Notes: generated from the sequence alone by a model not told the origin. DNA of 59,282 nucleotides from Gammaproteobacteria bacterium (GCA_009843625.1 VYDD01000156.1:2566-61847), one strand, 5' to 3'. Positions 3,410 to 44,711 are shown, counted from the stretch's first letter. Numbers and translations: made by a program.

Positions 3410-5105
<1,696 letters not shown>

Positions 5106-18704: not shown

Positions 18705-19436
18705 GGCTCAAGCACGCAGATGCACCTCGACAGGGCCGTGAGTCCCATCCGATCCCACCAGCTCTGCCTGCGGCACCTCCGGGGAGCCATTCCATGCTAG
18801 CCGAGCGGCAGTTCTCACGCGAACACCCCACCTGACGAAGGCATGTCCTCGTCTGGCTGAGCCGACAGCCCGCAAGAGTAACGTCGCCCGCGTCGGCTAC
18901 CGGATGCTCGCGCCCGACGGGGAGGATCCGGCGGGTAGCCTCGCCGGACGGCGATGGGGCAATCACCTCGCCGACGGCCTGCCGACGCGCACGAGTCGGC
19001 TTCCGGACGCCACGGGCGGTCCCCGCTCCGCGGCCAGGTCGCGCCTCGGCTGTCCGAGTGGGCGCTCGAATCGGCAGGAGCGTGCGTGGCTCCACGTCCA
19101 CCTGCTGCGATGTCCCGACCTGCATGCCCACCCTCAAACCCCGGCCTCCCGCAAGGTCCGCAGCGCCCTGACGAACGCCCTTGCGTTCTTGCCTGGGGTG
19201 CGCGACAAGTAGACCCGCGTCGACCGGGTAGACCGTCCCAGCGGAGTGTCCGGAACTCCATGAGCCACCCCTCTGTGCTTCCGACGTAGCGGTGGGGACG
19301 GTACGTCCGCTTCCAGGTGGAAGCGAGTCTGGAAAACGCGTTGAGCACAGATGACGAAGAGGCTGCGATTCCTTGGTGGCTGGACAGCCCCGGATCGCGT
19401 TGATAGCTTTCGTAAGAGTTCCCCTCCCCCAACTCG

Positions 19437-20696
19437 ATGACGGGCCGCTTCCGTGAGTGGATCATGACCACAAACCCCGAAGACCCCACAGGCCAGGTCG
19501 AACTCCTGCACCAGTGCCTCGCCGGCGACAAGAAACCGATTGGTTTCCTCCTAGGGGCGGGCTGCCCAATGGCAATTCGAACTCGAGCTCCAGGGGGCGA
19601 CTCGGACGAACCTCTTATCCCCGACGTCGCGACTCTGACGGAGCGAGTGCGGGAGTGTATCGGAGGCTCTGGTGAGCTCGGCGCCCCGCTCACATGCGTT
19701 GAGGAACACCTGCGGAGCGATCGCGGTGGTAGCGCAACTGTCGAAGATGTGCTGACGCACATAAGGTCGCTCGCCGCGGTTGCAGGACAAGGGGAAGTGC
19801 GAGGTTTGACAGCTCAACAGCTCTCTTCGCTGGACAAGTACATCTGTGACGTGATCCACGATCTCGTGGACAAGGAACTTCCCGAGGGTGACACGCCCTA
19901 CCATGTGGTTGCGAGATGGGTTAACTCTGTTCGCCGAGAGTTTCCGGTCGAGATATTCACTCCCAATTACGATCTTCTGATTGAGCAGGCTATGGAGGCG
20001 ACGCGCACGCCCTACTTCGATGGCTTCCCAGGCGTTCAGAGTCCCCTATTCGACCCAGCATCTGTGGAAGACTCTCGACTACCTCCACACTGGGCACGGG
20101 TATGGAAGCTACACGGATCCATCAACTGGTACCAGAATTCCGTTGGAGATGTCTTTCGTAGCACAACTTCCGAAGGAAGAGATAGGCGCGTAATACACCC
20201 TTCCCACCTAAAGCATGAGGAGAGTCGTCGCATGCCATACTTGGCGATGCTGGATAGGCTTCGCAACTTTCTGCGGGAGCCAACGGCAGTACTCGTCCTG
20301 TGCGGATACTCGTTCAGAGATGGACACATAAACGATACAATCGCTCAAGGCCTACAGTACACCAGAACATCCATTGCATATGGACTGCTCTTCGGTAATC
20401 TAGAGAATTGCCCAAGAGCTATTGAACTGGCAAAGGACCACCCAAATCTCAACCTCCTCGCCCTTGATGGAGGCATCATCGGTAGTCGAGAAGTTGAGTG
20501 GTGTCGGACTGTAACTGGCTCGGCACTCGAGCTCCCTGGTGGGGCGATCAGTTGGTGTGCCATAGACGAGAAGGATGAGGCAGCGCTCCAACGAGGGCAG
20601 TGCCGATTGGGCGACTTCGCGGTGTTCACCGCGTTTCTCAGTAGCCTCTCCAGGGGCACGCAACCTACCGAGCACGGTGTCTCGCGTGGCTCGTGA
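19437..20696 (+). CDS. SIR2-family protein (SIR2_2-like) of a SIR2-HerA defence pair
   Basis: FLLGAGCP, TPNYDLLIEQA, KLHGSINW and GYSFRDGHIN are typical of defence-type SIR2 domains. Alternative ATG at 19464. The end overlaps the herA start. Confidence 0.9.
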   Translation: MTGRFREWIMTTNPEDPTGQVELLHQCLAGDKKPIGFLLGAGCPMAIRTRAPGGDSDEPLIPDVATLTERVRECIGGSGELGAPLTCVEEHLRSDRGGSATVEDVLTHIRSLAAVAGQGEVRGLTAQQLSSLDKYICDVIHDLVDKELPEGDTPYHVVARWVNSVRREFPVEIFTPNYDLLIEQAMEATRTPYFDGFPGVQSPLFDPASVEDSRLPPHWARVWKLHGSINWYQNSVGDVFRSTTSEGRDRRVIHPSHLKHEESRRMPYLAMLDRLRNFLREPTAVLVLCGYSFRDGHINDTIAQGLQYTRTSIAYGLLFGNLENCPRAIELAKDHPNLNLLALDGGIIGSREVEWCRTVTGSALELPGGAISWCAIDEKDEAALQRGQCRLGDFAVFTAFLSSLSRGTQPTEHGVSRGS

Positions 20697-22578
20697 CCCA
20701 ACATACCTGGGAGCAGTTCAAGACGTACAGGGTGCGACGGTCACGGTCCGGCTCGATGATGCGACCGTATCGGGCTTGATGTTCATCGACGGTATCGGGT
20801 ATCGCGTTGGCCAGATCGGCAGCTTCATACGTATTCCGATTGGCTTCGTGGATCTCTTCGGCATCGTGTCGCAGGTCGGGGCAGGTGCTGTCCCAGAAGC
20901 GTTGGCCGCAAGTGAGCCTCATGGGTACCGGTGGATGAGGGTCCAGATGATCGGCGAAGGCCAGAAGGCCGGTGCATTCCAGCGGGGAATCTCACAGTAT
21001 CCGACGATCAACGATGAGGCTCACCTCACCACAGCAGACGACCTCGCCCAAATCTACGGCGTTCCTCAGGACTCGAGCTTCCTCCGGATTGGGAGCGTCG
21101 CAAGCTCGAACTCGATTCCCGCTATGGTTGATATTAATCGGCTGGTTACCAGACACAGTGCGGTATTGGGCGCAACTGGATCTGGGAAGTCGACCACTGT
21201 CGCTGGGATCCTAACGGCCATGTCCGATAGAGACAGCTATCCGTCGGCGCGTGCCATCATCCTTGACATTCATGGCGAGTACCGCAGCGCATTCAAGGAC
21301 CGGGCATCAGTATTCCGAGTGAATGCTGATCCGAAGGCCGGTGAGAGACAGCTATACATTCCATACTGGGCCCTGTCGGCTGATGAGCTTCTCCAGATGA
21401 CGCCGTTCCAAGGCATCACTGATGCTGATCGAGCCAGCGTACTCGAGCGCATACGTGCCCTAAAGGTCGAGTCCCTCGCCATGCAAGAGCGAAGCGGCGT
21501 CACAGCGGACACGCTTACCGTTGACTCACCAGTACCATTCAGCATTCACCGGCTGTGGTATGAGCTTTGGCGCGAGGTGCTCTCGACGCATACTGTCGGA
21601 CCCAATTCGAATCAGAGCCGCGAGACTGAAGCAGTTGCTTGTGACGAAGAAGGGTCTCCGAGAGTCGGCGACATCATGAGCGTCCAGCCTCCCGAATATC
21701 GGGCGCTAACGTCCGGCGGGGATGACCGTGTTTACTCCAGTGGCTCCGCATTGAACATCCGCAGACAATTGTTTGCGACTGCCAGCCTCCTTCGGGACCC
21801 ACGGTACGACTTCTTGTTTCGACCTGGGCCATGGTGTCCCTCACCAGCCCACGCGAATCTCAACGCTCAACCAGAAAGCGATCTGGACGATCTCCTGTCT
21901 TCGTGGATTGGAGCCGATAGGCCGATCACGATCTTGGACCTATCGGGCGTACCCGCGCTCATCCAGTCGGAACTCATCGGAGCGCTACTCCGGCTGCTGT
22001 TCGACGCCTTGTTCTGGGGCCGCTACCTTCCCGAAGGTGGCCGCCAGAGGCCCTTGCTGATCGTTCTCGAGGAAGCCCATGCGTACTTGAGCGCCGCTGG
22101 TAACAACGCAGCCGCGACATCGGTCCGCCGCGTCGTCAAGGAAGGCAGGAAGTACGGGCTGGGAGCCATGATCGTAAGCCAGAGACCGTCAGAGCTCGAC
22201 TCCGGGATCCTCTCTCAGTGTGGCACGCTCTTCGCCATGCGTCTCGCGAACTCTACCGATCGGTCAGACGTTACGGCTGCCGCCAGCGACAATCTACAGG
22301 GCCTCTTCGACATGTTGCCATCTCTGCGCACAGGAGAAGCTGTCGTCGTTGGTGAAGCTGTGAACCTCCCCATGCGAACGTTGATTGATGTGCCTCGGCC
22401 GGAAGGTCGCCCCGAGAGCGACGATCCCGTGGTCCACGATCCCGCGGCGGAGACGGGCTGGAACGCTCCGATGGAGGGCGAAGACTATCAGGAGCTACTC
22501 CGCCGGTGGCGCCGAGAGCGCGCCACTGAAGGCGGTGGGCGCGAGAAGCCTCAAATGAAGGAGACGGCAGGTGAATAG
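20677..22578 (+). CDS. herA: HerA-like (DUF87) ATPase of the SIR2-HerA pair
   Basis: Walker A LGATGSGKST, Walker B LIVLEEAHAY and SQRPSELD. GTG at 20677 (or 20686) is in frame within track ORF 20575..22578 and overlaps the SIR2 stop at 20694-20696. Confidence 0.9.
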   Translation: MSRVARDPTYLGAVQDVQGATVTVRLDDATVSGLMFIDGIGYRVGQIGSFIRIPIGFVDLFGIVSQVGAGAVPEALAASEPHGYRWMRVQMIGEGQKAGAFQRGISQYPTINDEAHLTTADDLAQIYGVPQDSSFLRIGSVASSNSIPAMVDINRLVTRHSAVLGATGSGKSTTVAGILTAMSDRDSYPSARAIILDIHGEYRSAFKDRASVFRVNADPKAGERQLYIPYWALSADELLQMTPFQGITDADRASVLERIRALKVESLAMQERSGVTADTLTVDSPVPFSIHRLWYELWREVLSTHTVGPNSNQSRETEAVACDEEGSPRVGDIMSVQPPEYRALTSGGDDRVYSSGSALNIRRQLFATASLLRDPRYDFLFRPGPWCPSPAHANLNAQPESDLDDLLSSWIGADRPITILDLSGVPALIQSELIGALLRLLFDALFWGRYLPEGGRQRPLLIVLEEAHAYLSAAGNNAAATSVRRVVKEGRKYGLGAMIVSQRPSELDSGILSQCGTLFAMRLANSTDRSDVTAAASDNLQGLFDMLPSLRTGEAVVVGEAVNLPMRTLIDVPRPEGRPESDDPVVHDPAAETGWNAPMEGEDYQELLRRWRRERATEGGGREKPQMKETAGE

Positions 22579-22780
22579 AGTGCCGGTGAGTTCAAGCAAT
22601 CTTGCGGCCATCGGTTACGATCCAAACACTCTAACGCTTGAGGTGGAGTTCCTCCGTGGTGGGGTGTACCAGTACTTCGATGTGCCATCACATGAACACC
22701 AAGCTCTGATGCAGGCACCATCACATGGCGAGTATTTTAGTGCGCACATAAGGAACAACTACCGGTACGCCAAGTTGTGA
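22571..22780 (+). CDS. KTSC-domain protein
   Basis: VSSSNLAAIGYDPNTLTLEVEFLRGGVYQYFDVPSHEHQALMQAPSHGEYFSAHIRNNYRY matches the KTSC consensus along its whole length. The start overlaps the herA stop. Confidence 0.85.
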   Translation: MNRVPVSSSNLAAIGYDPNTLTLEVEFLRGGVYQYFDVPSHEHQALMQAPSHGEYFSAHIRNNYRYAKL

Positions 22781-22840
22781 GCACATAATGGCGGCCTGGC
22801 TTGAGTCCTTGGAGAGACGACGACCAGAGGCCCCCGGTCC

Positions 22841-23155
22841 ATGACTCCGCCGCGTACGGCAGACATGAACCGGCGAGCGTCCCGCTTTTTCGCAATCCTC
22901 CACGCGCATCTGCAAGTGAGGCCTGAGATGACTCAGATCGATGTCGGACGCAGACTCCTTGAGCGGATGCGCGATGGTGCTCTTGCTAGGGCGGAGTTGA
23001 CACAGATGCTGGTAGCTGAGCGCGACCGATGCGTGGCCGAATCAGCGAGAGGCGAAGATGCGGCCTATGGTTGTGCCCACGCCGCGGCGATCCACTACGG
23101 TATCCCGACAGAGATGGCGCGCGGCCTGATCGCCGAGGCGGACGAGCAAACCTAG
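22841..23155 (+). CDS. Hypothetical protein
   Basis: 104-aa helical-looking ORF. Its TAG shares the palindrome CTAG (23152-23155) with the stop of the convergent STAND gene. Confidence 0.35.
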   Translation: MTPPRTADMNRRASRFFAILHAHLQVRPEMTQIDVGRRLLERMRDGALARAELTQMLVAERDRCVAESARGEDAAYGCAHAAAIHYGIPTEMARGLIAEADEQT

Positions 23156-26100
23156 TTTGGAGCCGCGCGGCGGGTAGGCGGGCTGACGTCAAGGACGATG
23201 ACCGAGATCCTGGCCGCTTCCTCTATGGTCAGCGCCTCCTCCAGCCGCCTCCCCAACTCATCGGGTGTCGAGGGACGGCTCCCTGTCGGCGGCGCCTGCA
23301 TGACGCCGTCGTTGAACCAGAGCACCACGAAGATGCCCTGGCCGGAGGTCTCCGCGTCGCGTGTGTACTGCTCGATCAGCTGCGTCTTGGCAGCACTCCA
23401 GACCTCCCGATGCGTGTCCTTCTTGATCTCCAGGGGGACGCTGAAGCTGCCGTAGGAGACGCGGATGTCGGACCGGCGTCTTCCCGCGTGCTGCCCCTCC
23501 GGTTGAGCATCCACGCCGCGAGGCAGCATCGCCCGCAGCCGGGCGAGCAGAGCGTCCCTGCATGAGTCCTCGTGCTTGGGCTTGATGGGGTGGCCGTAGG
23601 CATCCTCGTTCCAGTACTGGCGCCACTCGTCGGTGTTGCCGGTTCGGACGGTCGAGCCGATTCCGTGCAGCCGATGGAGCACGAGGGCGGCCAGGTCGCG
23701 GGCGTTCGCGGGCTCCTCGTCTTCGAGCGCGCTGTGGAGCTGTTCGAGGTCCGGGTGGCGGTATCCGGCGTCGCGGTGTATGACTCGCTGGTCGTCGCGA
23801 GCTCGCGCGAGCTGATCGTGCCAGGCGGCGATACCGGGGTCGGACAGCAGAGCGTCCAGTGCCCGCATGGCGTCCTCGCCGGGCAGGGCGCTCAGGCGCC
23901 GGATCAGGCGTTCGATCCTCTCAGAGGCGGGCTCAATCGCCACCCACTGGTCGGAGTCGGGCGGGGCAGACGAGCGGCCCATCACTGAGATGAGCGTCCG
24001 GAGCGCCTGAGCGCACTCCTCGTAGCTCGGTGACGGCAGTGCGGCGGTCGAGTCGCCGGAGCCGAAGAATGCGGCGAGCGCTCGCACCCGCCGCTCTCGC
24101 CCGCGGACGAACTCGTCGAGGCGGTCTGTCGAGGACTCGGGCGCGGCGACGAGAGCCGCAGCCAGCCAGCGGACGCGCTGGGCGACTTCCATGCTCTTCG
24201 CGGAGAGCTTCGCCTCGATGAGATCGAACAGGCGCGACCGGTCCGCGAAGCCGAGGGCGGACCAGAGCAGGCGGTCGAGTATCGTCAGCTTCGCGAGGCC
24301 GGCGCGCAGCGGGAAGGTCTTCAGCACGCTGAGCGTGGCCTCGAGCTTCAGATCGGGCGTCTCGAGCCGGTCGACGGCATCCAGAGCCGCGGCGTAGCTG
24401 CCGCCATGGCGGATCGCGGTTGAGAGGCACCGCGCTGCCACGTCCGCGACGACCGCCGGGGAGCGATCCGCCCACCGAGCGTGCCAGCGCGGGAGCCCGT
24501 TGAACCCCGGCGCACTGCAGTAGAAGAACGCCAGAGCTGTCCGGACCAGTCGCTCGTCCAGCTCGTCCAGCCGCTCCGGAGTCTCCCGATCGAGGATCTC
24601 CACGCCGGCAAGGAACGGGAGCGCGGAATAGTGCATCCGGGATGCCTGCTTCAGCCGGATGATCTTCTCCACGCCCGGCACGTCGCTCCGCCACACCGTC
24701 CCGCGCAGCCCGGCCAGGGCGGCATCGACGAGGTCGCGGTCACCGCCAAGGCGGTCTAGGAGGCGCTCCTCGGGACTCGGGTTCCTCGTCCAGTTGTTCC
24801 CGTGGAGGAAGTAGACATGGCCTAGGAATCGGAGCAGCGCGAGCGGGGCACGGTTCTCGCGCAGGGCATCGGCCTGGGCCCGGACGTAGGCCGTCTCCTC
24901 GTCCGCCTTCTCGCGGGCGAGCGCCTCCCGATCTCTCGCTTCGCTCAGCCGGGTGGCCCGCAGTGCCTCTCGCTCGGCGCGCCTCGCGATTCTGTCACGC
25001 AGTTCCGCGAGGCGTCTCTCGAGAACCGCATGCCCGCGGATGCGCTCCTCCAGCACGTCGAAGCCGATGCCGCGGTCGGTGACCCAGTGCGGATGCCCGC
25101 GTGAGGAGACGTCCAGGAGTTCCTTGGCGACCACCGGTCGCGACGGGGCGAGCTCGATTGCCTGCTCGAGGCTCCACGACGCCAAGTCGGTAGGGAGCTC
25201 GCTCCCGTGCAGCGCATCCCAGACGGCCGTGGAGTCCTCGAGGAAGCGATCGCTGTCCCGACACCGCTCGAGGCCCTCGAGGATCAACGCCTTCTGGAGA
25301 TCGGGACGCTGCTCCAGCCATGCGCGGACCTGTACCGGCTCGTCGCTGGTGTCATGGTGTCGCTCGGGAGAGGGCGCAGCCGCCCGCAGCCAGTCGTAGA
25401 GGCGCGGCGTCTCGAGATCGTCGCCGAAGGCGGCGAGCCCGCGCGCAAGCAGCTCTAGCGGGAGCGAATCAGCCCACAGCGACTCCAGCGTCACCAGCGC
25501 CTCGGGGAGGTGCTCGGCGAGCCGGTCGAGGAGCGCCGCGACGTCTTTGGGCGACGACCGGTGGGTCAGGTCGAACCGCCAGAAGCGGTCGTAGTGCCCT
25601 ACGACATCGTAGGGAGTGTCTCGGGGCCCCACCAGGTATTCCCACACGTCGCCGGGACCGACCGTCCGCGGGTAGAGGCGCGACAGCAGCGCTCCGCGCA
25701 TCTCGTGGTCCGGATCGGCGATCGAGCCCGCGCGGATCTCCTCGAGAAGGGCGACGAGGTCGCCGGCCCATCCATCGCCCTCCTCCGTGGAGTGGAGCAC
25801 CGCCCCCAGGGCTAGGTCGCCGACCTCCGGCGGCCAGGTCGGGTCGTGCATCAGCGCGAGCAGGGCAGGGACTAGGTCCGCGTGGCGGCTCCCGTCCCGC
25901 AGGAGCGCCAGCACCAGCAGGAGGAGCTGCCTCTGGCTCGGGTCGCGAGCCGGGTCCGACAGGATGCCGGCGAGCGTCGGCTCCATGTCGGGGGCCGTGA
26001 GCGCGCCGAGAGCAGTGGCAGCGTCCACCCACGACACCTCGCGCCAGAGCTGGTGGAGCGCCTCACGTCGACTGAGTGCGAGCAGCAGCCTGCCGCGCTC

Positions 26101-27273
26101 GTCGGGGGAGAAGGCCCCGAGGTCGCCGTACAGCGCCGCCCCGAGAGGATCGCGGCCGATGAGGAGGTCGCGGGCCGCGCCGCTGTGGGTCGCAAGCCAC
26201 CCCGAGAGGCCCCGCATCTCGGTGACCATGGCGCCGTCCGCGCCGCTGATCAGCGCCAGTACCCGCCGTGCCGGGAGGCCCTTCGCGATGCGCCGAGCGA
26301 GATGCCTGGCACCGAGGAACTCCGCGACGTGCCGGTGCACAGGCGCGAGCCGGCCGTCGCCGGCACCCGTGAACAGCCTCGTGCCGAGCGCGTGATCCAG
26401 TGCGGATGCATCGGGGTAGGCGCACTCCGCGAGGTCGATGTAGTCGGGACCGGCCGCGCCGCTCCGCCGCGCGTAGCCGGCGGCGCCCGTCACGAGGTGC
26501 GTCATGCAGAGGTAGCCGGCGGCGTCCAGCAGCCTCTCGGACGGCGGGGGCGAGCCCGCCCCGGCGTGCTCGCTGTTGTGCTCTGCGGCCATCTGGCGGC
26601 ACGCCATCTCGAACGTCTCGCGACGGCTTCCGGGCCAGCTGGCCTCCCTCGCGACGACGTCGGCCAGCATGTCGAGGGTCTGTGGGTTGGTGAGCAGGGC
26701 CTCGATGCTGCGTACGCGCGCCTGCTCCACAAATCCCCGTGCGTCGTCGATTCCAAAGTGGCCGTCCAGGATCCGCTCGATGTCGGAGCGGCTGAGCGGG
26801 TCGAGCCGCAGAACGGCGACGCTCGCGCCGGGGGCGACGGCATCCAACCTCGAGCGGTCGCTCTCGCCGAGCCAGTCCGCTTCCCGGCACGACAGACGGA
26901 AGCGCGGGGATCCGAGGGCATCGAGGTGGCGGCGAACATCATCGAGGGGCGTGCGCGTGTCGACGGAGCCGGCGCGCACCTCGTCGAGGCCATCGATGAA
27001 GATCGTCTTGTCGCGCCACTCAGGGTGCCGGGTCGGGTCCAGTGTCAGGAAGTCGCGGGCATCGAGCATGATGGCGGTGTCGCCGACTTCCTCGGACTCG
27101 CGCCGGAAGGCCGTGGTCTTCCCGGAACCCGGATCGCCGAGCAGGACGTAGGCCGGTTCGGACCGGAACGCGCTCAGGGCCTGGGGCTGCGGCGTTGTGG
27201 ACGAACCCTCGGCGCGCCGCAGGACCCGTGTGCAGGTGCGCTCGACGACCGGCCTCACGGTTCGCCGAGCCAT
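23152..27273 (-). CDS. STAND/NACHT-like NTPase with helical-repeat body and C-terminal PD-(D/E)xK-like module
   Basis: Walker A LLGDPGSGKTT and Walker B IFIDGLDEV near the N-terminus, then about 1000 aa that are Leu/Ala/Arg-rich. The C-terminus reads SDIRVSYGSFSVPLEIKKD...QLIEQY...GIFVVLWF (D...ExK). Start is ATG 27273 or GTG 27258, both overlapping the upstream gene. Confidence 0.85.
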   Translation of the reverse strand: MARRTVRPVVERTCTRVLRRAEGSSTTPQPQALSAFRSEPAYVLLGDPGSGKTTAFRRESEEVGDTAIMLDARDFLTLDPTRHPEWRDKTIFIDGLDEVRAGSVDTRTPLDDVRRHLDALGSPRFRLSCREADWLGESDRSRLDAVAPGASVAVLRLDPLSRSDIERILDGHFGIDDARGFVEQARVRSIEALLTNPQTLDMLADVVAREASWPGSRRETFEMACRQMAAEHNSEHAGAGSPPPSERLLDAAGYLCMTHLVTGAAGYARRSGAAGPDYIDLAECAYPDASALDHALGTRLFTGAGDGRLAPVHRHVAEFLGARHLARRIAKGLPARRVLALISGADGAMVTEMRGLSGWLATHSGAARDLLIGRDPLGAALYGDLGAFSPDERGRLLLALSRREALHQLWREVSWVDAATALGALTAPDMEPTLAGILSDPARDPSQRQLLLLVLALLRDGSRHADLVPALLALMHDPTWPPEVGDLALGAVLHSTEEGDGWAGDLVALLEEIRAGSIADPDHEMRGALLSRLYPRTVGPGDVWEYLVGPRDTPYDVVGHYDRFWRFDLTHRSSPKDVAALLDRLAEHLPEALVTLESLWADSLPLELLARGLAAFGDDLETPRLYDWLRAAAPSPERHHDTSDEPVQVRAWLEQRPDLQKALILEGLERCRDSDRFLEDSTAVWDALHGSELPTDLASWSLEQAIELAPSRPVVAKELLDVSSRGHPHWVTDRGIGFDVLEERIRGHAVLERRLAELRDRIARRAEREALRATRLSEARDREALAREKADEETAYVRAQADALRENRAPLALLRFLGHVYFLHGNNWTRNPSPEERLLDRLGGDRDLVDAALAGLRGTVWRSDVPGVEKIIRLKQASRMHYSALPFLAGVEILDRETPERLDELDERLVRTALAFFYCSAPGFNGLPRWHARWADRSPAVVADVAARCLSTAIRHGGSYAAALDAVDRLETPDLKLEATLSVLKTFPLRAGLAKLTILDRLLWSALGFADRSRLFDLIEAKLSAKSMEVAQRVRWLAAALVAAPESSTDRLDEFVRGRERRVRALAAFFGSGDSTAALPSPSYEECAQALRTLISVMGRSSAPPDSDQWVAIEPASERIERLIRRLSALPGEDAMRALDALLSDPGIAAWHDQLARARDDQRVIHRDAGYRHPDLEQLHSALEDEEPANARDLAALVLHRLHGIGSTVRTGNTDEWRQYWNEDAYGHPIKPKHEDSCRDALLARLRAMLPRGVDAQPEGQHAGRRRSDIRVSYGSFSVPLEIKKDTHREVWSAAKTQLIEQYTRDAETSGQGIFVVLWFNDGVMQAPPTGSRPSTPDELGRRLEEALTIEEAARISVIVLDVSPPTRRAAPN

Positions 27274-28514
27274 TCGTCGGCGGGCGTCGAGAGGAATTCG
27301 TTGAGCGGTACTCCTTCCTCCCCGACGACCAGCGGCCGCGGCGCGCCGAAGCGCTGCTGGAACGCGCGCATGGCGTCTTCGTTCGCGCGACGTTCGCCGC
27401 TCTTGACCTCGATCCCCACGACACGCGGGCCGCGCCGGAGAACGAAGTCGATCTCGTGCCGACCGTCTCGCCAGTAGTGGATGCCGACGCTCGCCGAGGC
27501 CGTGTTGACGAGGTGCGCCCCCACCGCGCTCTCGACGAGCCTGCCCCAGAAGGTGCGGTCGGCTCTCGCCTCATCGAAGGAGTAGCCGGACGCGGCGGTC
27601 ATGAGCGCCGTGTTGAGCACGTTGAGCTTCGGACTCGATGCCCTGCGGCGCGGGGTGCTCCCGGAGTGCTGCGACAGCCCCGTGAGCAGGCCCGCCGACG
27701 ACAGCAGGTCGAGGTAGCGCGCGAGCGTCGTCGTGTTGCCGGCGTCGTGGAGCTGGCCGAGCATCTTGTTGTAGGAGAGGATCTGCCCGGAGTGGGAGGC
27801 CCCGAGCGCGAAGAGGTTCTTCAGCAGGGCGGGCTTGTCCACCCGCGTCATGGCGAGCAGGTCACGCTCGAGGTGCGGCTCGACCAAGGCGTGCAGGATG
27901 TAGTCCCGCCACCGCGCCTCATCCCGGATGAGGGCGGCGGCACCGGGGTAGCCGCCGAAGTAGATGTACTCGTCGAGGGTCAGGTCGAATGCCGCGGCGA
28001 TCTCGGAGAAGGCCCAGTGCGTCATTCGGATCGGTTCGAACCTGCCGGCGAGACTCTCGCTCAGGCCTGACTGCATCAGGAGCGGGGCCGACCCGAGGAC
28101 GACCACGTGGAGCGGCACGTCGTTGGCGCGGTCGGCATCCCAGAGGCCCTTGATGGTCTCGGGCCAGTCGTGGATCTTCTGGATCTCGTCGTACACGAGC
28201 ACAAGACCGTGCGGGGACTCCCACGCTCGGCGCCGGGCATCTTCCCACGTGCGAACGACCCACGCCGGGTCGCGTTCGTCGGTGAGCGGAGCGGTGTTCC
28301 CCCGGAGCTCAGAGAGCACGAGACCAGGATCTGATGGTGGCGGCTCGTCGACCGCCAGGTACCGGCCGGGGCGATCGGTCCGGGCGAGCGCTTGGTGGAC
28401 CATGGTGGTCTTGCCGACCTGGCGAGGCCCGGAGATGGCGATCAGCCTGTTCGGCGGCTCCGCGAGCCGGGCTAGCAGCGTGTCGGCGCTCGCTCGACGG
28501 AAGGCGTCCATCAC
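27255..28514 (-). CDS. AAA_14-type ATPase with DUF4143-like C-terminus
   Basis: Walker A ISGPRQVGKTT and Walker B LVLVYDEIQ. The C-terminus reads HEIDFVLRRGPRVVGIEVKSG (nuclease-like D...ExK). GTG 28514 or ATG 28511. Confidence 0.9.
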   Translation of the reverse strand: MMDAFRRASADTLLARLAEPPNRLIAISGPRQVGKTTMVHQALARTDRPGRYLAVDEPPPSDPGLVLSELRGNTAPLTDERDPAWVVRTWEDARRRAWESPHGLVLVYDEIQKIHDWPETIKGLWDADRANDVPLHVVVLGSAPLLMQSGLSESLAGRFEPIRMTHWAFSEIAAAFDLTLDEYIYFGGYPGAAALIRDEARWRDYILHALVEPHLERDLLAMTRVDKPALLKNLFALGASHSGQILSYNKMLGQLHDAGNTTTLARYLDLLSSAGLLTGLSQHSGSTPRRRASSPKLNVLNTALMTAASGYSFDEARADRTFWGRLVESAVGAHLVNTASASVGIHYWRDGRHEIDFVLRRGPRVVGIEVKSGERRANEDAMRAFQQRFGAPRPLVVGEEGVPLNEFLSTPADEWLGEP

Positions 28515-28521
28515 GCGACAT

Positions 28522-28551
28522 TACTATCTTGAGTAAGAATACTCAATAGTA
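28522..28551. promoter_or_regulatory. A/T-rich imperfect palindrome and direct repeat abutting the start of the ATPase-STAND operon
   Basis: Perfect core TTGAGTA-agaa-TACTCAA (28529-28546), extended to TACTAT(ct)TTGAGTA / TACTCAATAGTA. TA(C/G)TATCTT is also repeated directly (28522-28530 and 28547-28555). Confidence 0.4.
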
Positions 28552-28862
28552 TCTTACCGACGCGGAACGACCTCGGGCTGCCGAAGCGGATCGCGCGCCG
28601 CTGGCTCGATGAGCACCTCGTTGACGTGCGTGCGCGACGGCCCGACGCGGGTGGCAACGCGAGGTGAACGACTGATGCGACGCGGCAACTCGGTCCTCGT
28701 GGTCCTGCCCGAGGACGGGAACCGCCCGACCGCTCACCACAGCGGGCAACTCGCCGCGGGAAGGCGTCGAAGCCGCCTCCGGGAGTGCTCAGGTAGCGGT
28801 CCGGTCGGCCCTCCCCCGTGCTACTGTTCGCTGTGCTCACCACCGCGAGAGGGGGGCGGCCG

Positions 28863-29042
28863 ATGAGACGACTCACGCCCGACGAGATTGAGAATGCCCG
28901 GGCGGAGCTGCGCGCCATGCGAGAGACGATCGAGTCCCTTAAGGCGAGCGTTCCGCCTTCCTTTGCCCGAGAGTACGTGGCGACGATGGACAAGTCGCTC
29001 GCCGAAGTCGAGCGGGTGTTCGAGATCGGAACGGTCAAGTGA
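28863..29042 (+). CDS. Small hypothetical protein
   Basis: 59-aa helical ORF (MRRLTPDEIENARAELRAMRETIESL...). Coding status is uncertain. Confidence 0.25.
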   Translation: MRRLTPDEIENARAELRAMRETIESLKASVPPSFAREYVATMDKSLAEVERVFEIGTVK

Positions 29043-29048
29043 CTCACA

Positions 29049-29279
29049 TTGCCCGAGGCCTACCTGGAACCCCTCAAGGCACAAATCGCTAAAGCGTGCG
29101 GAGTGCTCGTGGCCGCAGAGGACGCGCTCCTAGCCGCGTTGGCGAGTAGTAGGCGTGACAACCAACGTTCTTCGGTCACAGGCGAGCAAGCCCTGGAGAA
29201 GCTTGCCGAGTCGAAGCTCGCCGAGCGTATCAGCGACCTCGTGCAGCTTGCGGAGCTCGGTTCTCGACTCCCACGCTGA
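29049..29279 (+). CDS. Small hypothetical protein
   Basis: 76-aa helical ORF with a TTG start. Coding status is uncertain. Confidence 0.2.
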   Translation: MPEAYLEPLKAQIAKACGVLVAAEDALLAALASSRRDNQRSSVTGEQALEKLAESKLAERISDLVQLAELGSRLPR

Positions 29280-29429
29280 ATTCGTCAGGCAGCGAGCGCC
29301 GGCGATAGCGAACCCCATCCCGGCAGAATACAGGCCTGAGTCCGCGCTCGTGCCTCATGCCTGTCCGCCCATTCGACGCGGCCACGGGCAAGCGGCCCCA
29401 GTAGTCAGGCTATGGCTCGTCGATCGGGG

Positions 29430-29713
29430 CTACCGCACGGGTGTAATGTGTCTCTGGTCGTCGCCGGCGGCTACCTGTGCGTAGACCCGCTCCGCCACCC
29501 CGGCCCGGTAAGACGTGAGCGTCCACACCATCGCCTTGTAGGCGTTCGAGGCGAAGGAGTCTACGGCCCACCGGGCGGCCTCGCGGAGTCGATGTCCGAG
29601 AACTCGACCTCGGCCTCCCGCAGCGCCCGCCGCATGTCCCGGTCGATGAGGCACTCGTACTCGACCTCCCGGTCGATGGGGCCGCTCACATCCCACAGCA
29701 CGGCCTTCAGCAC
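29430..29713 (-). pseudogene. Small gene of unknown family, apparently frameshifted
   Basis: GTG 29713 gives VLKAVLWDVSGPIDREVEYECLIDRDMRRALREAEVEFSDIDSA.., with a stop at 29561. Protein-like sequence continues in another frame (AARWAVDSFASNAYKAMVWTLTSYRAGVAERVYAQ...) to 29430. Confidence 0.3.
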
Positions 29714-29786
29714 GCGTGCTCTCCGCCCCCGTCGTGTCGCCTCCGGTTCCCCGTGTCCGCCACGCTCACGTTCAGGCCTCCCGCGG

Positions 29787-30953
29787 TCAGTCCGCCTTGA
29801 GCAGGGGCTGGAGGTCGAGATCCTGGTAGAGGCGCCATCGGGAACCGGTCTCCGTGCACCGGAGGATCGTGAGCTTCCCATCGCCGAAGGCAACCGCCCA
29901 TAGTTCGTCGATGCCCGGAAACGTGATGCCGCCAAAATCCAGCGGCGAGTCGTCGAACTCGGTCACGCCCCGCAACTGCGTCGCGGCCTCGCCCTCGTCG
30001 AGGATCACCACGAGCCACCTCGAGGCCGCCATACCAGCCCACTGGTCGCGCTCCAGCTTGTGGTCGATGGACCGCTGCACAGCCGAGACTAGTGCCGAGA
30101 CATCGGTCACTCTCGAGAAGTGCGATACGGAGGTCACGAGGGTGATGCGCAGGCTTCCACAGCCTGCGCCGGCGGGCTCCTTCGCGAGGATGGAGACCCT
30201 TAGGGGCGGCTCCGACTTGAGCAACTCGTTCTTCGCCCACCGCCACTCGCGGCTGATTTCCTCCTCGCAGATCGCTTCGATCGGCGCATCGTCACCCGGG
30301 CCGAACTCGCCGTTCTCGACGCGCGCCAGGACCTCGGCCAGCATCTGGCGCACCCCGCTTACCGAGAAGGCATTGTCACCCGTGTAGTCGTTCAGATGGC
30401 GGTTGTCGGCGACGAGGACACGCCAGTTGTGGGAAAGCCCGGAGACGCCCCGGCGGCTGCGCGCGTTGCTCACCCCCCGGCGGCCCCCGTCGGTGTGCAT
30501 CGTGGCCTCGACATCGGCCGAGCGCCCGTCAGGGAGAACAACGCCGAAGTCCGCCCGGCGCCCCGTGCCCTGCGGCCGCTTCTCGATATTCGCCTCCGGG
30601 ATGACCGCCCGTATCGCGGCCGCAGCCATCTCCTCATCGGACCGAAGGTCGATCCCTTGCAGGACGCGGAGGCCATTGTTCTGGGCCCACTGGTTCCACG
30701 AACGAATCCCGCCGTCATCCCGTGCCCCGCCGACTTCAGCCGACACCGACCACTCGATCAGGTCGCCCTCTTCCGTGAAGCGCTGGTCGACCACTATCGA
30801 AAGGTAAGGGTGATCCGCAGCTGCGAGCACCTGTGGCGCCTCGCGTTTCAGGGCCGCGCGCACGCGGTCAAGTGCCTGCTCCAGGGTTCGTGGGTCAAGC
30901 ACATCACCGAAAGCCGCGGCCTCGGCATGGTCGGCCAACTGGTCTCCGTCCAC
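29787..30953 (-). CDS. Hypothetical protein, no recognised domain
   Basis: GTG 30953 is preceded by GGAGGT with an 8-nt spacer. Track ORF 29787..31187 extends further, but its first ~78 codons look like the C-terminus of the carbamate kinase remnant. Confidence 0.5.
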   Translation of the reverse strand: MDGDQLADHAEAAAFGDVLDPRTLEQALDRVRAALKREAPQVLAAADHPYLSIVVDQRFTEEGDLIEWSVSAEVGGARDDGGIRSWNQWAQNNGLRVLQGIDLRSDEEMAAAAIRAVIPEANIEKRPQGTGRRADFGVVLPDGRSADVEATMHTDGGRRGVSNARSRRGVSGLSHNWRVLVADNRHLNDYTGDNAFSVSGVRQMLAEVLARVENGEFGPGDDAPIEAICEEEISREWRWAKNELLKSEPPLRVSILAKEPAGAGCGSLRITLVTSVSHFSRVTDVSALVSAVQRSIDHKLERDQWAGMAASRWLVVILDEGEAATQLRGVTEFDDSPLDFGGITFPGIDELWAVAFGDGKLTILRCTETGSRWRLYQDLDLQPLLKAD

Positions 30954-30959
30954 GGCGGA

Positions 30960-31440
30960 ACACCTCCAAGTGCCGGAGCTGACTCGCTGTTCGGCAGGCT
31001 GAGCCGGCGCAGGCTCTCCAACGATGGGCACCCGATACTCATGCTCGGACCTTGAGACCTGAGGGGGAAGGGCACCGGAAGAGCCGTCCTTGCCGGCCAG
31101 CCCGGCAAGCCTCGATGCGCATCCGCTGGTACGCGTCGCCCCACATCCCCAGCGTGGTGTCGCCGCCCCGACGATAGGCGGTACCACGGCGTCGACGTCA
31201 GTGGCCAGGATCCCAGGTGGGCGCCGAGTTCGCGCGCGAGCAACTCGCTCGCGGCGTGCTTGTCGATCACGGCCTCGATCCCGCGCAGTTCGCTGCGACC
31301 CGAGTACGCCGGGGGATGCCGTCGCCGCCCAGGCAGATCACGATCGTCCCGCGCTCGAGGAGCCAACGGACCGAGTTGGGGCCATATTGGGTGGTACGGG
31401 GTGGGTTCCGGCGGGACGACACGGGCTTAGGGCTCCAGAA
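30960..31440 (-). pseudogene. arcC: Carbamate kinase remnant (N-terminally truncated, at least 2 frameshifts)
   Basis: Three frames carry consecutive carbamate kinase blocks: SPKPV...VRWLLERGTIVICLGGDGIP, then LRGIEAVIDKHAASELLA, then ILATDVDAVV ... IVGEPAPAQPAEQRVSSGT. Compare the family motifs SPKP, GGGGIPV, GVEAVIDKD and the C-terminal GT. Coordinates are approximate. Confidence 0.6.
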
Positions 31441-31529
31441 TCCCGCGATGCACAGGTACGAAACTGCCCCTAATGGGAGTAGACGGGACGTGACGGGATC
31501 GAGCTTGGCCGACTGGCAGTGTGGAGGTC

Positions 31530-31733
31530 CTAGGTCCACCAATGCCGACCGCACTTAGAACTCGTTCTCACAAAGCCACGTCGGCGGCGTCCCCGCCGCC
31601 GATTGGGCTGTCCAGCGGGGTCGGGATCGTGGAGTGGAGCGTGGGGGAACAGCGTCGTGGCCAGCTTCCGCAAGTCGGGCCACCGGAACGGCGTGTCCTT
31701 GAGCGCGCGGTAGTAGAGATTGAAGCTGTCCAC
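31530..31733 (-). pseudogene. N-terminal fragment of an NYN-domain protein
   Basis: VYVDSFNLYYRALKDTPFRWPDLRKLATTLFP resembles the conserved NYN/LabA-like N-terminus. It then degenerates into Arg/Pro-rich sequence. Confidence 0.45.
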
Positions 31734-31978
31734 GTAGACGTTTGGTGATCAATCGCTAGCCTCAAGGAAAGACAGAGACCGCCACGAGGGCGGCCTCCAC
31801 CCTGCCGTCGAATCGACAGGGGCTGTGGGAAGATGTTAGTGCGAACGTTTGGAGCGGGGGAAGTGACTAGTCCCCGCTGCTGACGTGCCCAACGCCGCCA
31901 ACGGGCTGTCCATCGATCGGGCTCGGCCCCACTGAGACGACTCTGCCAGACCGTGGTGCGTTCCCTCGCCCGGGCTTC

Positions 31979-32005
31979 GACCCCCAGTTGACGAAACTGA
32001 GAGTC
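31979..32005. repeat. GACCCCCAGT-type hairpin repeat, copy d
   Basis: gacccccagtt-gacga-aactgagagtc. Confidence 0.7.
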
Positions 32006-32187
32006 ACACCCTACGCGGGAGATCGACGACCGGCCGCAGGAACGCCTCGAGACGCGCTTCGTATTTGGCCGGGGCGCTGCGGGATCTGGAAGACCTCAGC
32101 AAACGCGGCTGAACTATTGCGCCCCGTGATCGCCTCGCGGTATCTGGCTGTCCTCACGCATCACCAAGGCACGTAAGGTCTCGAGCC

Positions 32188-33165
32188 CTAGAGTTCGATC
32201 TGGTACTGCCAAGTTCTCAAGAGTCCGTCAGTCGTCAGCTTCGAGTAGCTCTTCGCAAACGGGTAGATGATGCTTGCGGCGGTGTGCTCCAGCTCTCTCA
32301 GGTAGTAGAGAGCGAATCCAAGCACATGAGGTTTCGGGCCAGTCGGACACAAGTAGAGGTTCCCGAATTCCTGCTGGCGAGCGGCTGTCTCCTCACGCTC
32401 ACGGGCCACGAGGTCATGTAGCTCCTGTGCCACCGCGAACGGATGGTTAGCGGAAGCGTAAAGGAACCGCTGTCGAGGGACGCTGCCGATTGACTCTCTT
32501 GCCTGATCAATGCGTAGTACATTCTCTTGGTACATATGCGGCTGTAGTGACGGCAACCCCGTCACCACGTACTTCTTGCTGGTCTTCTTGGCGTCGCAAG
32601 CGCTTGCGATCTGTTGGGAATCGTAACCCGTCCCGACCACCAAGATGTCGTCTTCTGTGCCAGAAGGGACGCGATGCAAGCCTTCGTATCCTGGAACTTG
32701 CATCACATCGACTATCGGACCGGTAGTAAACTCTGTATGTTCATCCGCGACATAGCGCATAGGATCGCTATACAGGATATCAAACGACCTCACTCCTACA
32801 TCACGGAGTGCCCATAGCAGAATCAGCAAGTGGGGACGGATGAAACCCGTAATGTCTACACATATGCGGGCGTCGTGTAGTTGACTTTCCATGTTTCGAA
32901 TAAAGTCAAGCATTGCAGGGGGATCGAACGACGCCTGAAGAGTCACGGCTTCTTCTGGTCTCTCTCCTTCGCTGATCTCGTATTCTTCGTGCACAATCCA
33001 TATCTTATTGGAAGCCTGCACGGCTTCAAACGGCTCCTGCACTCGGACCGTCTTGTCGTAAGCAGACAATAGTATGTCCCAGGGCCCAGCTTGCGGTAGT
33101 TGCTCCGGCCTGTGTGCAGTTCGCTCGAACGCGTAGTAGTCAGCCCGACGGAGAGTGGAGAACAC
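32188..33165 (-). CDS. Uncharacterised 325-aa protein, last gene of the thyX-MTase cassette
   Basis: Non-GC-biased ORF starting 13 nt after the upstream stop. Alternating beta/alpha-like segments (ICVDITGFIRPHLLILLWAL, ILVVGTGYDSQQIA, LYLCPTGPKPHVLGFALYY) suggest Rossmann-like lobes. No catalytic motif recognised. Confidence 0.7.
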   Translation of the reverse strand: MFSTLRRADYYAFERTAHRPEQLPQAGPWDILLSAYDKTVRVQEPFEAVQASNKIWIVHEEYEISEGERPEEAVTLQASFDPPAMLDFIRNMESQLHDARICVDITGFIRPHLLILLWALRDVGVRSFDILYSDPMRYVADEHTEFTTGPIVDVMQVPGYEGLHRVPSGTEDDILVVGTGYDSQQIASACDAKKTSKKYVVTGLPSLQPHMYQENVLRIDQARESIGSVPRQRFLYASANHPFAVAQELHDLVAREREETAARQQEFGNLYLCPTGPKPHVLGFALYYLRELEHTAASIIYPFAKSYSKLTTDGLLRTWQYQIEL

Positions 33166-33178
33166 GCGTTACCCCAAG

Positions 33179-35233: not shown

Positions 35234-35262
35234 GTCCGGCGACAATCGTTCGCTTCCTTCGC

Positions 35263-36219
35263 TCACTGTTTCGGTATGCGCGGGAAGAGTGCACGCCACG
35301 GCGGTTGGGACTGCTCCGCCCAGAATATGGGCAACGTGTTGTCCGGGACATTGTGATGGAAGCCCAGCAAGAGCTGGCAATCGCCATGGCCGAGAGGGCC
35401 AGTCGGGTGCAGGCGCCTTCCGTAGTGGCGAGCCATTGCTTCTCCGTCGCTTTGTCGGAGGTCATTGCCCTGTTCACCGTATAGTTGCGACTCGGGCTCG
35501 AAGACACGGTACGTGTCGTCGAGCTCTGAGACGGTCGCCACCCGGTCGAAGACGGTCGCGTCCCTCAAGCGAGAAAGACCAGTCGTGGTACCGAACAGCG
35601 CTAGGTACCATACCTCCACCGAAACTGCGCTGCGGGTTGCAGCTGCTCGCAACCAGCGTACGGTTCCTCGGCCTAGGGCTATGGCCTGGCTTCCCGTCCC
35701 ACAGAAGTCGTCCACGAAGATGAGGCGCCGCACCGTTGGAGAGCCCCACTCGGTCTTTGGATCACGGAGAGGGCCTGTAACTAGTTCGAGAGGACTGACA
35801 AACGCTTCCGTGGGGAGACTGTTCGCAAGTCGGAAGTCGTAGAGAATATGCGGTCCGCTCTCGGCGGGCGTACCGAGACCAAGGAAACGTGTTCTCTCGA
35901 GTTCAGTGAGAAAACCACTGTGTACTGCGGCAAAGTCCTCTCGATTCCCTAGCGCTGCTCGGACATCGACGGAGAGAGGACTTCGGATGAGGTCGCGGAA
36001 CATCGCGCGCAAGAGTTGACGGACCTCGGTCTGCCCGAAATAGAGGAACTTCGAGAGAAGGTACAGGGCGTGGCGGCGCTCAGCCTCACGCGATAGTCGA
36101 CCACCCGAGAAGTTACTCAACCACACTTCTAGCGTCGGAAGGGTGACATGATCCTCCCAGAGAAGTTCGTTCAGGTTCTTTACCTTCGACTGGAGCTCGT
36201 TAGGGCCCGTTAACGGCAT
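35263..36219 (-). CDS. Phosphoribosyltransferase (PRTase)-like protein
   Basis: RLIFVDDFCGTGSQA is a PRPP-binding-loop signature (hydrophobic run, DD, xGTGx). It overlaps the MTase stop by 10 nt. Confidence 0.75.
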   Translation of the reverse strand: MPLTGPNELQSKVKNLNELLWEDHVTLPTLEVWLSNFSGGRLSREAERRHALYLLSKFLYFGQTEVRQLLRAMFRDLIRSPLSVDVRAALGNREDFAAVHSGFLTELERTRFLGLGTPAESGPHILYDFRLANSLPTEAFVSPLELVTGPLRDPKTEWGSPTVRRLIFVDDFCGTGSQAIALGRGTVRWLRAAATRSAVSVEVWYLALFGTTTGLSRLRDATVFDRVATVSELDDTYRVFEPESQLYGEQGNDLRQSDGEAMARHYGRRLHPTGPLGHGDCQLLLGFHHNVPDNTLPIFWAEQSQPPWRALFPRIPKQ

Positions 36220-37589: not shown

Positions 37590-37594
37590 TTGGC

Positions 37595-39055: not shown

Positions 39056-39141
39056 AGTGCGCCCTCAAGGTTTAGTCGGAATCGGACGCGGCTGGATCGT
39101 GGGCGGCGCCGCGTGCACCGTGCATGCCGAGGGAGGATTGC

Positions 39142-41118: not shown

Positions 41119-41598
41119 ACGCGCCCGCGCATACCTAGCGAGTGTCGAGCACTTGGACCGTGACCGGACCACGCTCGTGCGTCGCAGGACGATCCGCTGG
41201 CCAGTCCATGATCCGTGCAGGCCCACTGTCGTGCCCCCGTCCCGGATAGCGCCGCCCGGCGCCGCGCCACGCCGCAGCAGCGAAGTCACGAGGCAAGCCC
41301 GGACCGACTTGGCCACTTCCTAGGAGTTCACGCAGCCCTCGCGCTGGCGGCACGACGCTCGGACAGCATTGGCGTCCATACGTCGTTTCATTCCCCATCT
41401 AGTCTCATCATACGTATTTCATATCGACGCGTTTCGCGCGGCCGGGCATGCTCTCACGCGGGAGCCTGCGGCGACACATCGGCAGCGTGTGGTGCCGGCG
41501 ATCGATGCGTCGAGTCCCGTCGTAACTCCCGGCTCGGGCTTGTGCGATGGGCGAGTGCCGCCCGACCGCGGATGTGCGTGTGTGAAGAATCGACGGCG

Positions 41599-44709: not shown

Positions 44710-44711
44710 CC

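Follow-up and report, generated by a model that had tools for sequence, protein, structure and literature searches.

Conserved coupling of an EruA-like NACHT STAND gene to a PDC-S01-type ATPase-nuclease gene behind a palindromic site: a candidate two-gene anti-phage cassette

The antiviral STAND systems Avs and bNACHT, known from the work of Gao et al. and Kibby et al., are reported to be single polypeptides in which a STAND NTPase is joined to a nuclease-type effector and to a large sensor of alpha-helical repeats, and their ligand-induced oligomerisation is presumed. Their usual order is an N-terminal effector, a central NTPase and a C-terminal sensor. The locus described here lies on the minus strand of a 59,282-nucleotide stretch of DNA from a Gammaproteobacteria bacterium (GCA_009843625.1, VYDD01000156.1:2566-61847), the whole of which is called the window below. 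It consists of a NACHT STAND gene preceded and overlapped by a gene encoding an AAA_14/DUF4143 ATPase. The STAND protein resembles Avs and bNACHT by the presence of an NTPase, a helical-repeat putative sensor and a predicted nuclease-type effector in a single chain, but its order is NTPase, solenoid and C-terminal nuclease, and a second ATPase is obligately linked to it. No Avs1-5 or NLR-type model of PADLOC-DB v2.0.0 matches this protein, the sole hit being a chance-level mad8 match (E 0.005) over the P-loop. An overview of the antiviral STAND systems appeared in Nature in 2026, the main text of which does not contain the names EruA and HyoA used below (PMC13581612).

The STAND protein aligns from end to end with the NCBIfam model NF058535, named 'NACHT domain-containing antiphage protein EruA' (E 1e-266, residues 26-1364 against positions 11-1318 of 1318), with a score of 888.6 bits that falls below the curated equivalog cut-off of 1000. 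The succession of NACHT module, solenoid and C-terminal nuclease is common to both, as are Pfam DUF8371 (PF28130) and a PE...RxD...ExK...QLxxxY motif, found in the window clade and in bona fide members such as the Bradyrhizobium plasmid homologue WP_247777624.1, which passes the cut-off at 1189.6 bits. DUF8371, a newer Pfam family, is carried by more than 3196 homologues in a collection of 5.8 billion proteins. The differences concern divergence and gene context. The identity with Proteobacterial homologues, encoded on plasmids and chromosomes and including the Bradyrhizobium member, is only about 25-36%; these distant relatives keep the C-terminal nuclease motif and are stand-alone, whereas the window clade has a dedicated upstream ATPase-nuclease and a putative palindromic operator. 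No ATPase is found upstream in three loci that pass or nearly pass the EruA cut-off (L083, L086, L087), and among the neighbours of bona fide EruA genes no Eru-type partner NCBIfam model was matched. The EruA paralogue HyoA (NF058534) scores 175.1 bits against the STAND protein, far from its cut-off of 1200.

On the ATPase side, the described counterpart is PDC-S01, a single-gene phage-defence candidate made of an ATPase fused to a PD-(D/E)xK domain, which one survey places fourth by frequency among prokaryotic defences and calls unvalidated (PMC12988326). The window ATPase shares this make-up, and its stand-alone relatives are preceded by the same palindrome. It differs from PDC-S01, defined as a single gene, by its overlap and strict linkage with a STAND gene, and by its membership in a monophyletic subclade that has its own insertion and C-terminal tail. 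The preliminary description, made from the sequence alone, had proposed a candidate undescribed STAND-type system. This proposal does not hold, since the end-to-end EruA match largely assigns the protein to a named subtype and the ATPase is of the PDC-S01 type: judged by sequence, the STAND protein is a member of the wider EruA family. What is new is the conserved operon coupling of the ATPase and STAND modules, together with the palindromic control site that accompanies the ATPase family across phyla. An earlier description of the two-gene form is possible, as a literature search found no paper behind the names EruA and HyoA.

Two minus-strand open reading frames (ORFs) fill the region 23152..28514, one of 419 aa (27255..28514) and one of 1373 aa (23152..27273), and the residue numbers given below follow this listing for both proteins. 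The TGA stop codon of the ATPase gene (27257..27255) overlaps both candidate starts of the STAND gene. The sequence ATGA or GTGA occupies the ATPase/STAND junction in 72 of 78 related loci, and several of these loci have in-frame stops between -19 and -4 in the STAND frame. For these reasons GTG 27258 is taken as the STAND start; ATG 27273 was dropped, being a by-product of Glu-Trp codons that are conserved towards the C-terminus of the ATPase. The overlap already pointed out in the preliminary description is real, and of the two STAND starts that it named, GTG 27258 gives a protein of 1368 aa in place of the 1373 aa that it stated. The same four-nucleotide overlap exists in the independent gene calls of two further loci (L091 and L092), and this arrangement points to a translational coupling of the two genes. 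For the ATPase itself, ATG 28511 is the most likely start. The positions of all features are collected in Table 1.

The association between the two genes was evaluated by a scan restricted to one genome per species, which returned at least 585 relatives of the STAND protein, the best 80 loci being kept (40-66% identity). These loci come from about ten phyla and include members of Chloroflexota, Acidobacteriota, Latescibacterota, Gemmatimonadota, Verrucomicrobiota, Rhodothermales, Acidimicrobiia, Entotheonella and Binatia, and come mostly from metagenome-assembled genomes (MAGs) of the sponge type. In 78 of the 80, a homologue of the ATPase (53-80% identity) ends exactly at the STAND start, which confirms the recurrent adjacency raised in the preliminary description. 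Coupled pairs were also observed in six other loci (L089, L091, L092, L094, L162 and L164), four of which are divergent, with identities of 31-38% for the STAND protein and 49-56% for the ATPase (L089, L094, L162 and L164). Two diverged copies per genome are present in at least six genomes, as complete cassettes (L003/L020, L010/L011, L012/L052, L032/L076, L049/L075) or as the STAND gene only (L045/L051). A recombinase-like ORF lies upstream of L045. The pairwise identities of the two proteins are correlated over 77 pairs (r = 0.87), the ATPase being the more conserved of the two, with a mean pairwise identity of 66% vs 47% for the STAND protein.

This strict linkage is also ancient. In a neighbour-joining tree of 137 ATPases, the 83 STAND-coupled sequences all group in a single clade to which none of the 28 unpaired ones belongs, so that the coupling has a single origin on the ATPase side. 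The members of this clade keep all the catalytic residues and share an insertion at about residues 61-100 and a C-terminal tail (P411, W415) not seen in roughly half of the unpaired sequences. On the STAND side, a quick neighbour-joining tree groups the 77 genomic pairs into one clade in which the two ATPase-less copies (L045 and L051) are nested, so that these are best explained by a secondary loss. Three divergent pairs fall outside this main clade, and a monophyly of the coupled STAND proteins is not recovered in this quick tree.

The domain architecture of the STAND protein could be established by combining motif conservation with structural models. The motifs GDPGSGKTT, IDGLDE, DIRV...PLEIK and QLIEQY are all present and are invariant in 116 homologues; at the level of single residues, alignments of 30 and of 116 homologues show the invariance of G46...K52, D94, D97, E98, E1235, E1259, D1269, E1282, K1284, Q1298 and Y1303. 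The Walker A motif obeys the consensus GxxGxGK[ST]. The Walker B motif, FIDGLDEV, in which G95 is conserved in at least 90% of the sequences, corresponds to the NACHT signature hhhhD[GAS]hDE, in which, as reportedly defined by Koonin and Aravind in 2000, the Mg-binding Asp is succeeded by a small residue and then by acidic ones. The Pfam NACHT model (PF05729) itself gives a P-loop-level match only (E 0.28, 11.5 bits for a cut-off of 26.7), no Pfam family covers the whole protein, and no PDB sequence match extends beyond the P-loop. The AlphaFold model of residues 1-1129 (pLDDT, the predicted local distance difference test, 85; pTM, the predicted template modelling score, 0.63) comprises a P-loop alpha/beta domain, then helical and winged-helix parts, then an all-alpha solenoid. 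When this model was submitted to Foldseek against the PDB, NLRC4 came first (4kxf, E 2.8e-6, probability 1.0; then 8fw2 and 8fvu), followed by the HEAT/ARM solenoids of karyopherins, CRM1 and CAND1; the STAND protein 6mfv was matched as well. The likeness to NLRC4 and the animal NLRs thus lies in the structure of the N-terminal 1129 residues, for which NLRC4 is the top match, and in the D-G-L-D-E form of the Walker B motif. In contrast with these receptors, to which it is about 10% identical, the window protein is devoid of LRR and CARD, has a HEAT/ARM-like solenoid, and carries a fused nuclease rather than an adaptor domain. A match of the linker helix to 'ribosome-recycling factor' was discarded as a chance match of the coiled-coil type.

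Conservation differs along the protein: it is highest in the NTPase (0.73) and in the nuclease core (0.70) and lowest in the solenoid (0.50-0.56), which includes a poorly conserved long helix at about residues 749-799. As a sensor is expected to be the least conserved region, the solenoid is the candidate for this role. The model of the C-terminal residues 1130-1373 (pLDDT 85, pTM 0.74) has an alpha-beta-beta-beta-alpha-beta core in which D1269 immediately precedes a strand, the strand that follows carries E1282 and K1284, and E1235 belongs to the helix before them, the canonical positions of a PD-(D/E)xK enzyme. Its top Foldseek matches in the PDB, although of weak E-value, are almost all PD-(D/E)xK nucleases (PspGI, Can2, Can1, Bax1, Nt.BspD6I, McrC, SfsA, EndoMS, HindIII, Hjc and LmuA), while no Pfam nuclease model matches this region. 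On the strength of this model, the C-terminus is predicted to be a PD-(D/E)xK nuclease. The domains had been correctly anticipated in the preliminary description, which had recognized the NACHT/STAND P-loop at the extreme N-terminus, the long helical-repeat region (a solenoid of about 800 aa in the AlphaFold model), the restriction-endonuclease-like module at the C-terminus and the resulting reversal of the effector order relative to Avs and bNACHT.

The same description had announced an AAA_14/DUF4143 ATPase with a PD-(D/E)xK tail, and this assignment holds as well. Both Pfam families exceed their gathering scores (AAA_14, E 3.6e-19, 69.5 bits for a cut-off of 27; DUF4143, E 2.2e-27, 96.2 bits for a cut-off of 28.1), and the PADLOC model PDLC04791 (PDC-S01) matches the protein from end to end (E 3.2e-157, residues 5-415 against positions 2-393 of 395), six further PDC-S01 models matching it as well. 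The Walker A (G29-T37) and Walker B (D109-Q112) motifs, R158 and the residues E354, D356, E369 and K371 are at least 97% conserved in 77 orthologues, and the last four are conserved in paired and unpaired relatives alike. Weak matches to YraN and CARF_PDDEXK models cover residues 293-387, and DUF4143 is listed in the PD-(D/E)xK superfamily (PMC3424549). The C-terminus is thus a nuclease tail as far as sequence motifs can tell. No partner-type NCBIfam model matched the ATPase, and no solved structure is related to it by sequence beyond P-loop matches.

A third conserved element precedes the ATPase gene. It is a palindrome of about 36 bp with the consensus AATTACGCTATTGAGTAATTTTACTCAATAGnGTAA over the related loci, and its core occurs once in the window, vs 0 expected by chance. 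It is centred about 26 nucleotides before the ATPase ATG in about 67 of the 80 related loci, from all the phyla (at about 6700-6750 in L001-L080), and in three of the additional pairs (L089, at 4688..4726, L091 and L092). The palindrome contains a -35-like TTGAGT, a 17-nucleotide spacer and a -10-like TAAT(T)T (TAGTAA/TAAT in the window), and would, by its sequence, be a promoter overlapped by an operator. As the -10-like hexamer ends about 8 nucleotides before the ATG, the mRNA is probably leaderless or nearly so. The outer positions of the arms vary between loci yet stay symmetric: 57 double-change cells were counted vs 26 +/- 3.8 in shuffles, none of 500 being as high, and the arm covariation score is 0.215 vs at most 0.099 for slid controls. 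Such a symmetric covariation agrees with a co-evolution of the site and a dimeric binder encoded by the cassette, the alternative being a hairpin.

The distribution of the palindrome was explored by a metagenome scan with a 19-base version, which yielded at least 120 stretches (L093-L212). Among the 120 listed, an ATPase homologue is present in 75, starting 10-45 nucleotides from the palindrome centre in 60, and an EruA-like STAND gene is also present in six; the other 45, which are short contigs or orphan copies, have no ATPase. The palindrome, which in metagenomes mostly precedes stand-alone ATPases, is for this reason considered a hallmark of the ATPase family and not of the STAND gene. Alternative partners were sought downstream of the stand-alone ATPases and rejected, the ORFs found there being mutually unrelated and mostly uncoupled to the ATPase gene. 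In one of these stretches (L186), the palindrome-led ATPase is followed, after 149 nucleotides, by another AAA_14/DUF4143-like gene (424 aa) that has diverged from it, the two being tandem paralogues. Orphan palindromes were moreover seen in Rhodothermales MAGs (L053 at 823, 12662 and 14472; L056 at 6162; L065 at 17393), inside a repeated element of about 70 nucleotides (…ATTACCCCATTGAGTGATTTTACTCAATGGGGTAATT…TTTTTGGAGGGG…) that may be either a dispersed repeat or what is left of cassettes since lost.

On the basis of these elements, the locus is read, with moderate confidence, as a two-gene anti-phage cassette in which a STAND sensor-effector is associated with a dedicated ATPase-nuclease partner and which is probably autoregulated through the palindrome. 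The cassette would be made of three parts, the palindromic promoter/operator, the AAA_14/DUF4143 ATPase-nuclease and the EruA-like NACHT STAND protein. By analogy with NLRC4, Avs and bNACHT, the variable HEAT/ARM-like solenoid would be triggered by binding a phage-derived ligand, and this binding would free the N-terminal NACHT NTPase for nucleotide binding and oligomerisation. The oligomer would then gather the C-terminal PD-(D/E)xK domains, which would cut DNA and abort the infection. The ATPase-nuclease would descend from the widespread free-standing PDC-S01-type family, which has its own palindromic promoter/operator, and would have been recruited once. Presumably co-translated with the STAND protein through the four-nucleotide overlap, it would most likely act as a partner in a complex or add a further DNA-directed activity, and an autoregulation of the operon by its binding to the palindrome is probable. 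A more specific version, put forward as tentative, is an obligate hetero-complex of the two proteins, equivalent to a bacterial 'paired receptor' in which one member licenses the other: the ATPase would engage invader or palindrome-like DNA while the STAND protein would sense a phage protein.

Several observations weigh against the cassette as proposed. The qualifier 'anti-phage' rests on a curated label given to a relative, because the paper behind the name EruA was not found and because the STAND protein scores below the cut-off, as do the members of its clade that were tested (886-952 bits). The Foldseek E-values of the nuclease domain range from 7e-3 to 0.2, none being at or below 1e-3. 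One PDC-S01 representative, taken alone, gave no protection against T4, T5 or T7 (preprint 10.1101/2024.09.26.614923). Two coupled pairs (L091 and L092) sit among housekeeping genes, one of them beside a DDE transposase, and not in a defence island. Finally, EruA-type STAND and ATPase modules each exist alone elsewhere, and neither is intrinsically dependent on the other: all nine unpaired EruA-type loci inspected, from Proteobacterial or viral contigs, are without ATPase (L081-L088 and L090), both exceptional STAND copies, L045 and L051, belong to one Dehalococcoidia MAG, where the gene is intact and no ATPase precedes it, and most of the palindrome-led ATPases, 40-55% identical to that of the window, are stand-alone wherever the downstream DNA suffices to judge.

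The last group of observations leads to the alternative that survives best, although it is considered rather unlikely, namely that the two genes are independent defence genes on one transcript, the STAND protein working alone, apparently like its Proteobacterial relatives, behind a tightly regulated PDC-S01-type promoter and without any protein interaction. The separate occurrence of both modules and the intact STAND genes without ATPase favour this explanation, and the correlated divergence of the two proteins could likewise reflect co-inheritance alone. The neighbours in a defence island are, however, normally reshuffled, whereas here one linkage event has been kept across about ten phyla and down to STAND identities of roughly 31-33%. 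The four-nucleotide overlap kept in 72 of the 78 loci, the insertion and C-terminal tail proper to the coupled ATPase clade, and the higher conservation of the ATPase relative to the STAND protein also speak against independence.

The properties of the palindrome suggest another role for this partner, that of a regulator or safety lock, devoid of effector activity, which would bind the palindrome and repress the operon, or restrain the STAND nuclease in the manner of an antitoxin, until relieved by infection. An upstream gene translationally coupled to its neighbour is well placed to produce a regulator together with its target, the palindrome overlaps promoter-like hexamers and travels with the ATPase gene, stand-alone copies included, and the covariation of the half-sites is expected for a dimeric binder encoded by the cassette. 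Yet a pure repressor would not need the invariant PD-(D/E)xK and Walker residues of the ATPase, no DNA-binding domain has been demonstrated in it, and EruA-type proteins exist without such a lock, which makes a purely regulatory function improbable. The absence of any defence role, the cassette being instead a selfish or addiction module or serving DNA repair or host interaction in sponge symbionts, organisms with many eukaryote-like repeat proteins, would agree with the sponge-type origin of most of its closest relatives, with its sharp, portable boundaries and with the pairs found among housekeeping genes or beside a transposase, but is regarded as very improbable given the match to a curated anti-phage family, the defence islands of the window and of the relatives' plasmids, an NLR-like organisation in which the sensor varies and the occurrence of several copies in a genome, both typical of immune receptors, and the lack of a conserved recombinase or terminal repeat accompanying the cassette. 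A phage-borne origin was also rejected, being suggested only by one weak match to a phage record and by two IMG/VR loci.

The reading of the locus as an anti-phage cassette with two ATPases would have several consequences. Few predicted defence genes of bacteria and archaea are as abundant as those of the PDC-S01-type ATPase-nucleases, which have no demonstrated function; a subclade locked to an NLR-like effector offers a concrete system in which this function can be tested. The paired-receptor version, if true, would provide the first functional context for PDC-S01 and a new, two-ATPase mode of STAND signalling. From the standpoint of STAND biology, the locus is a natural case in which a sensor-effector protein gained a second ATPase as partner and retained it while diverging deeply. 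The palindrome is both a handle for the study of cassette regulation and a marker for the detection of new cassettes. As the family is heavily expanded in the genomes of sponge symbionts, often in several copies, it also bears on immunity in these communities.

Table 1. Positions of the cassette features and of the defence-island segments, counted from the first nucleotide of the window
Feature	Position	Strand	Basis
Palindromic promoter/operator (putative) ATACTATTGAGTATTCTTACTCAAGATAGTAAT	28520..28552	-	sequence, conservation, covariation
Palindrome core TTGAGTA-N3-TTACTCAA	28529..28546	-	
AAA_14/DUF4143 ATPase-nuclease gene, PDC-S01 type, 418 aa from ATG 28511 (alternative GTG 28514)	27255..28511	-	
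ATPase Walker A GPRQVGKTT	28404..28430	-	
ATPase Walker B DEIQ	28179..28190	-	
ATPase PD-(D/E)xK motif EIDFV...IEVK	27402..27455	-	
GTGA overlap, STAND start codon/ATPase stop codon	27255..27258	-	sequence and comparison with related loci
EruA-like NACHT STAND gene, 1368 aa from GTG 27258 (ORF listing: ATG 27273, 1373 aa)	23152..27258	-	NF058535; homologue comparison for the start
NACHT-type NTPase module, residues ~36-345	26239..27168	-	motifs, NLRC4 structural match
STAND Walker A GDPGSGKTT (residues 46-54)	27112..27138	-	
STAND Walker B IDGLDE	26980..26997	-	
All-alpha HEAT/ARM-like solenoid, residues ~346-1130, presumed sensor	23884..26238	-	AlphaFold secondary structure, Foldseek
Predicted C-terminal PD-(D/E)xK nuclease core, residues 1230-1325	23299..23586	-	model, Foldseek and motif conservation
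Nuclease residues E1235, E1259, D1269, E1282, K1284, Q1298...Y1303	D1269, 23467..23469; K1284, 23422..23424; Q1298...Y1303, 23365..23382		
Defence-island segments of the window	19437..22578, 32188..38626, 39124..41118, 44580..47372, 49078..53434		

The surroundings of the pair are those of a defence island, in agreement with the preliminary description, which had placed the locus between SIR2-HerA and further defence cassettes. Besides SIR2-HerA, the window contains a CARF-like gene adjacent to that of an ORC/CDC6-like ATPase. Its methyltransferases include one of type II with a PRTase, one of type III and one that accompanies a HerA-like gene, and a HEC-05-like gene and PDC-S48 (DEDDh) are present as well. 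Several of the nine unpaired EruA-type loci similarly lie among Ppl, Abi, Shedu, HEPN, SIR2 and RES genes. Apart from the pair itself, no neighbouring gene of the window is conserved across the related loci, the convergent 104-aa ORF at 22841..23155 being one of those that are not, and a conserved element (mobile-element end or terminator) was looked for downstream of the STAND stop and not found. A 178-aa ORF (28511..29047), whose stop overlaps the ATPase start, was considered as a third gene and rejected, as it has no homologue in any of the 80 loci; its Arg/Ser-rich composition is typical of spurious ORFs in high-GC DNA. Two other large ORFs attracted attention, both without PADLOC match at the E-value thresholds of the scan: one of 466 aa (29787..31187, minus strand), which has no Pfam or NCBIfam match either, and one of 878 aa (41215..43851, plus strand), for which PADLOC was the only library scanned. 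They may be uncharacterised defence genes or, again, spurious ORFs.

The STAND protein is identical to the deposited entry 'MAG: hypothetical protein F4020_01800 [Gammaproteobacteria bacterium]', encoded on an 8.8-kb contig. Its close relatives, with up to 71% identity, all come from sponge-type MAGs of Chloroflexota or Dehalococcoidia, and the taxonomic label of the bin containing F4020_01800 may be wrong. The base composition of the window is also uneven: the GC content is 57-60% in 19000..23000 (SIR2-HerA) and 31000..38000 (CARF, ORC and methyltransferase genes) vs about 70% in the ATPase-STAND pair and its flanks (23000..31000), a contrast that suggests a mosaic of separately acquired cassettes.

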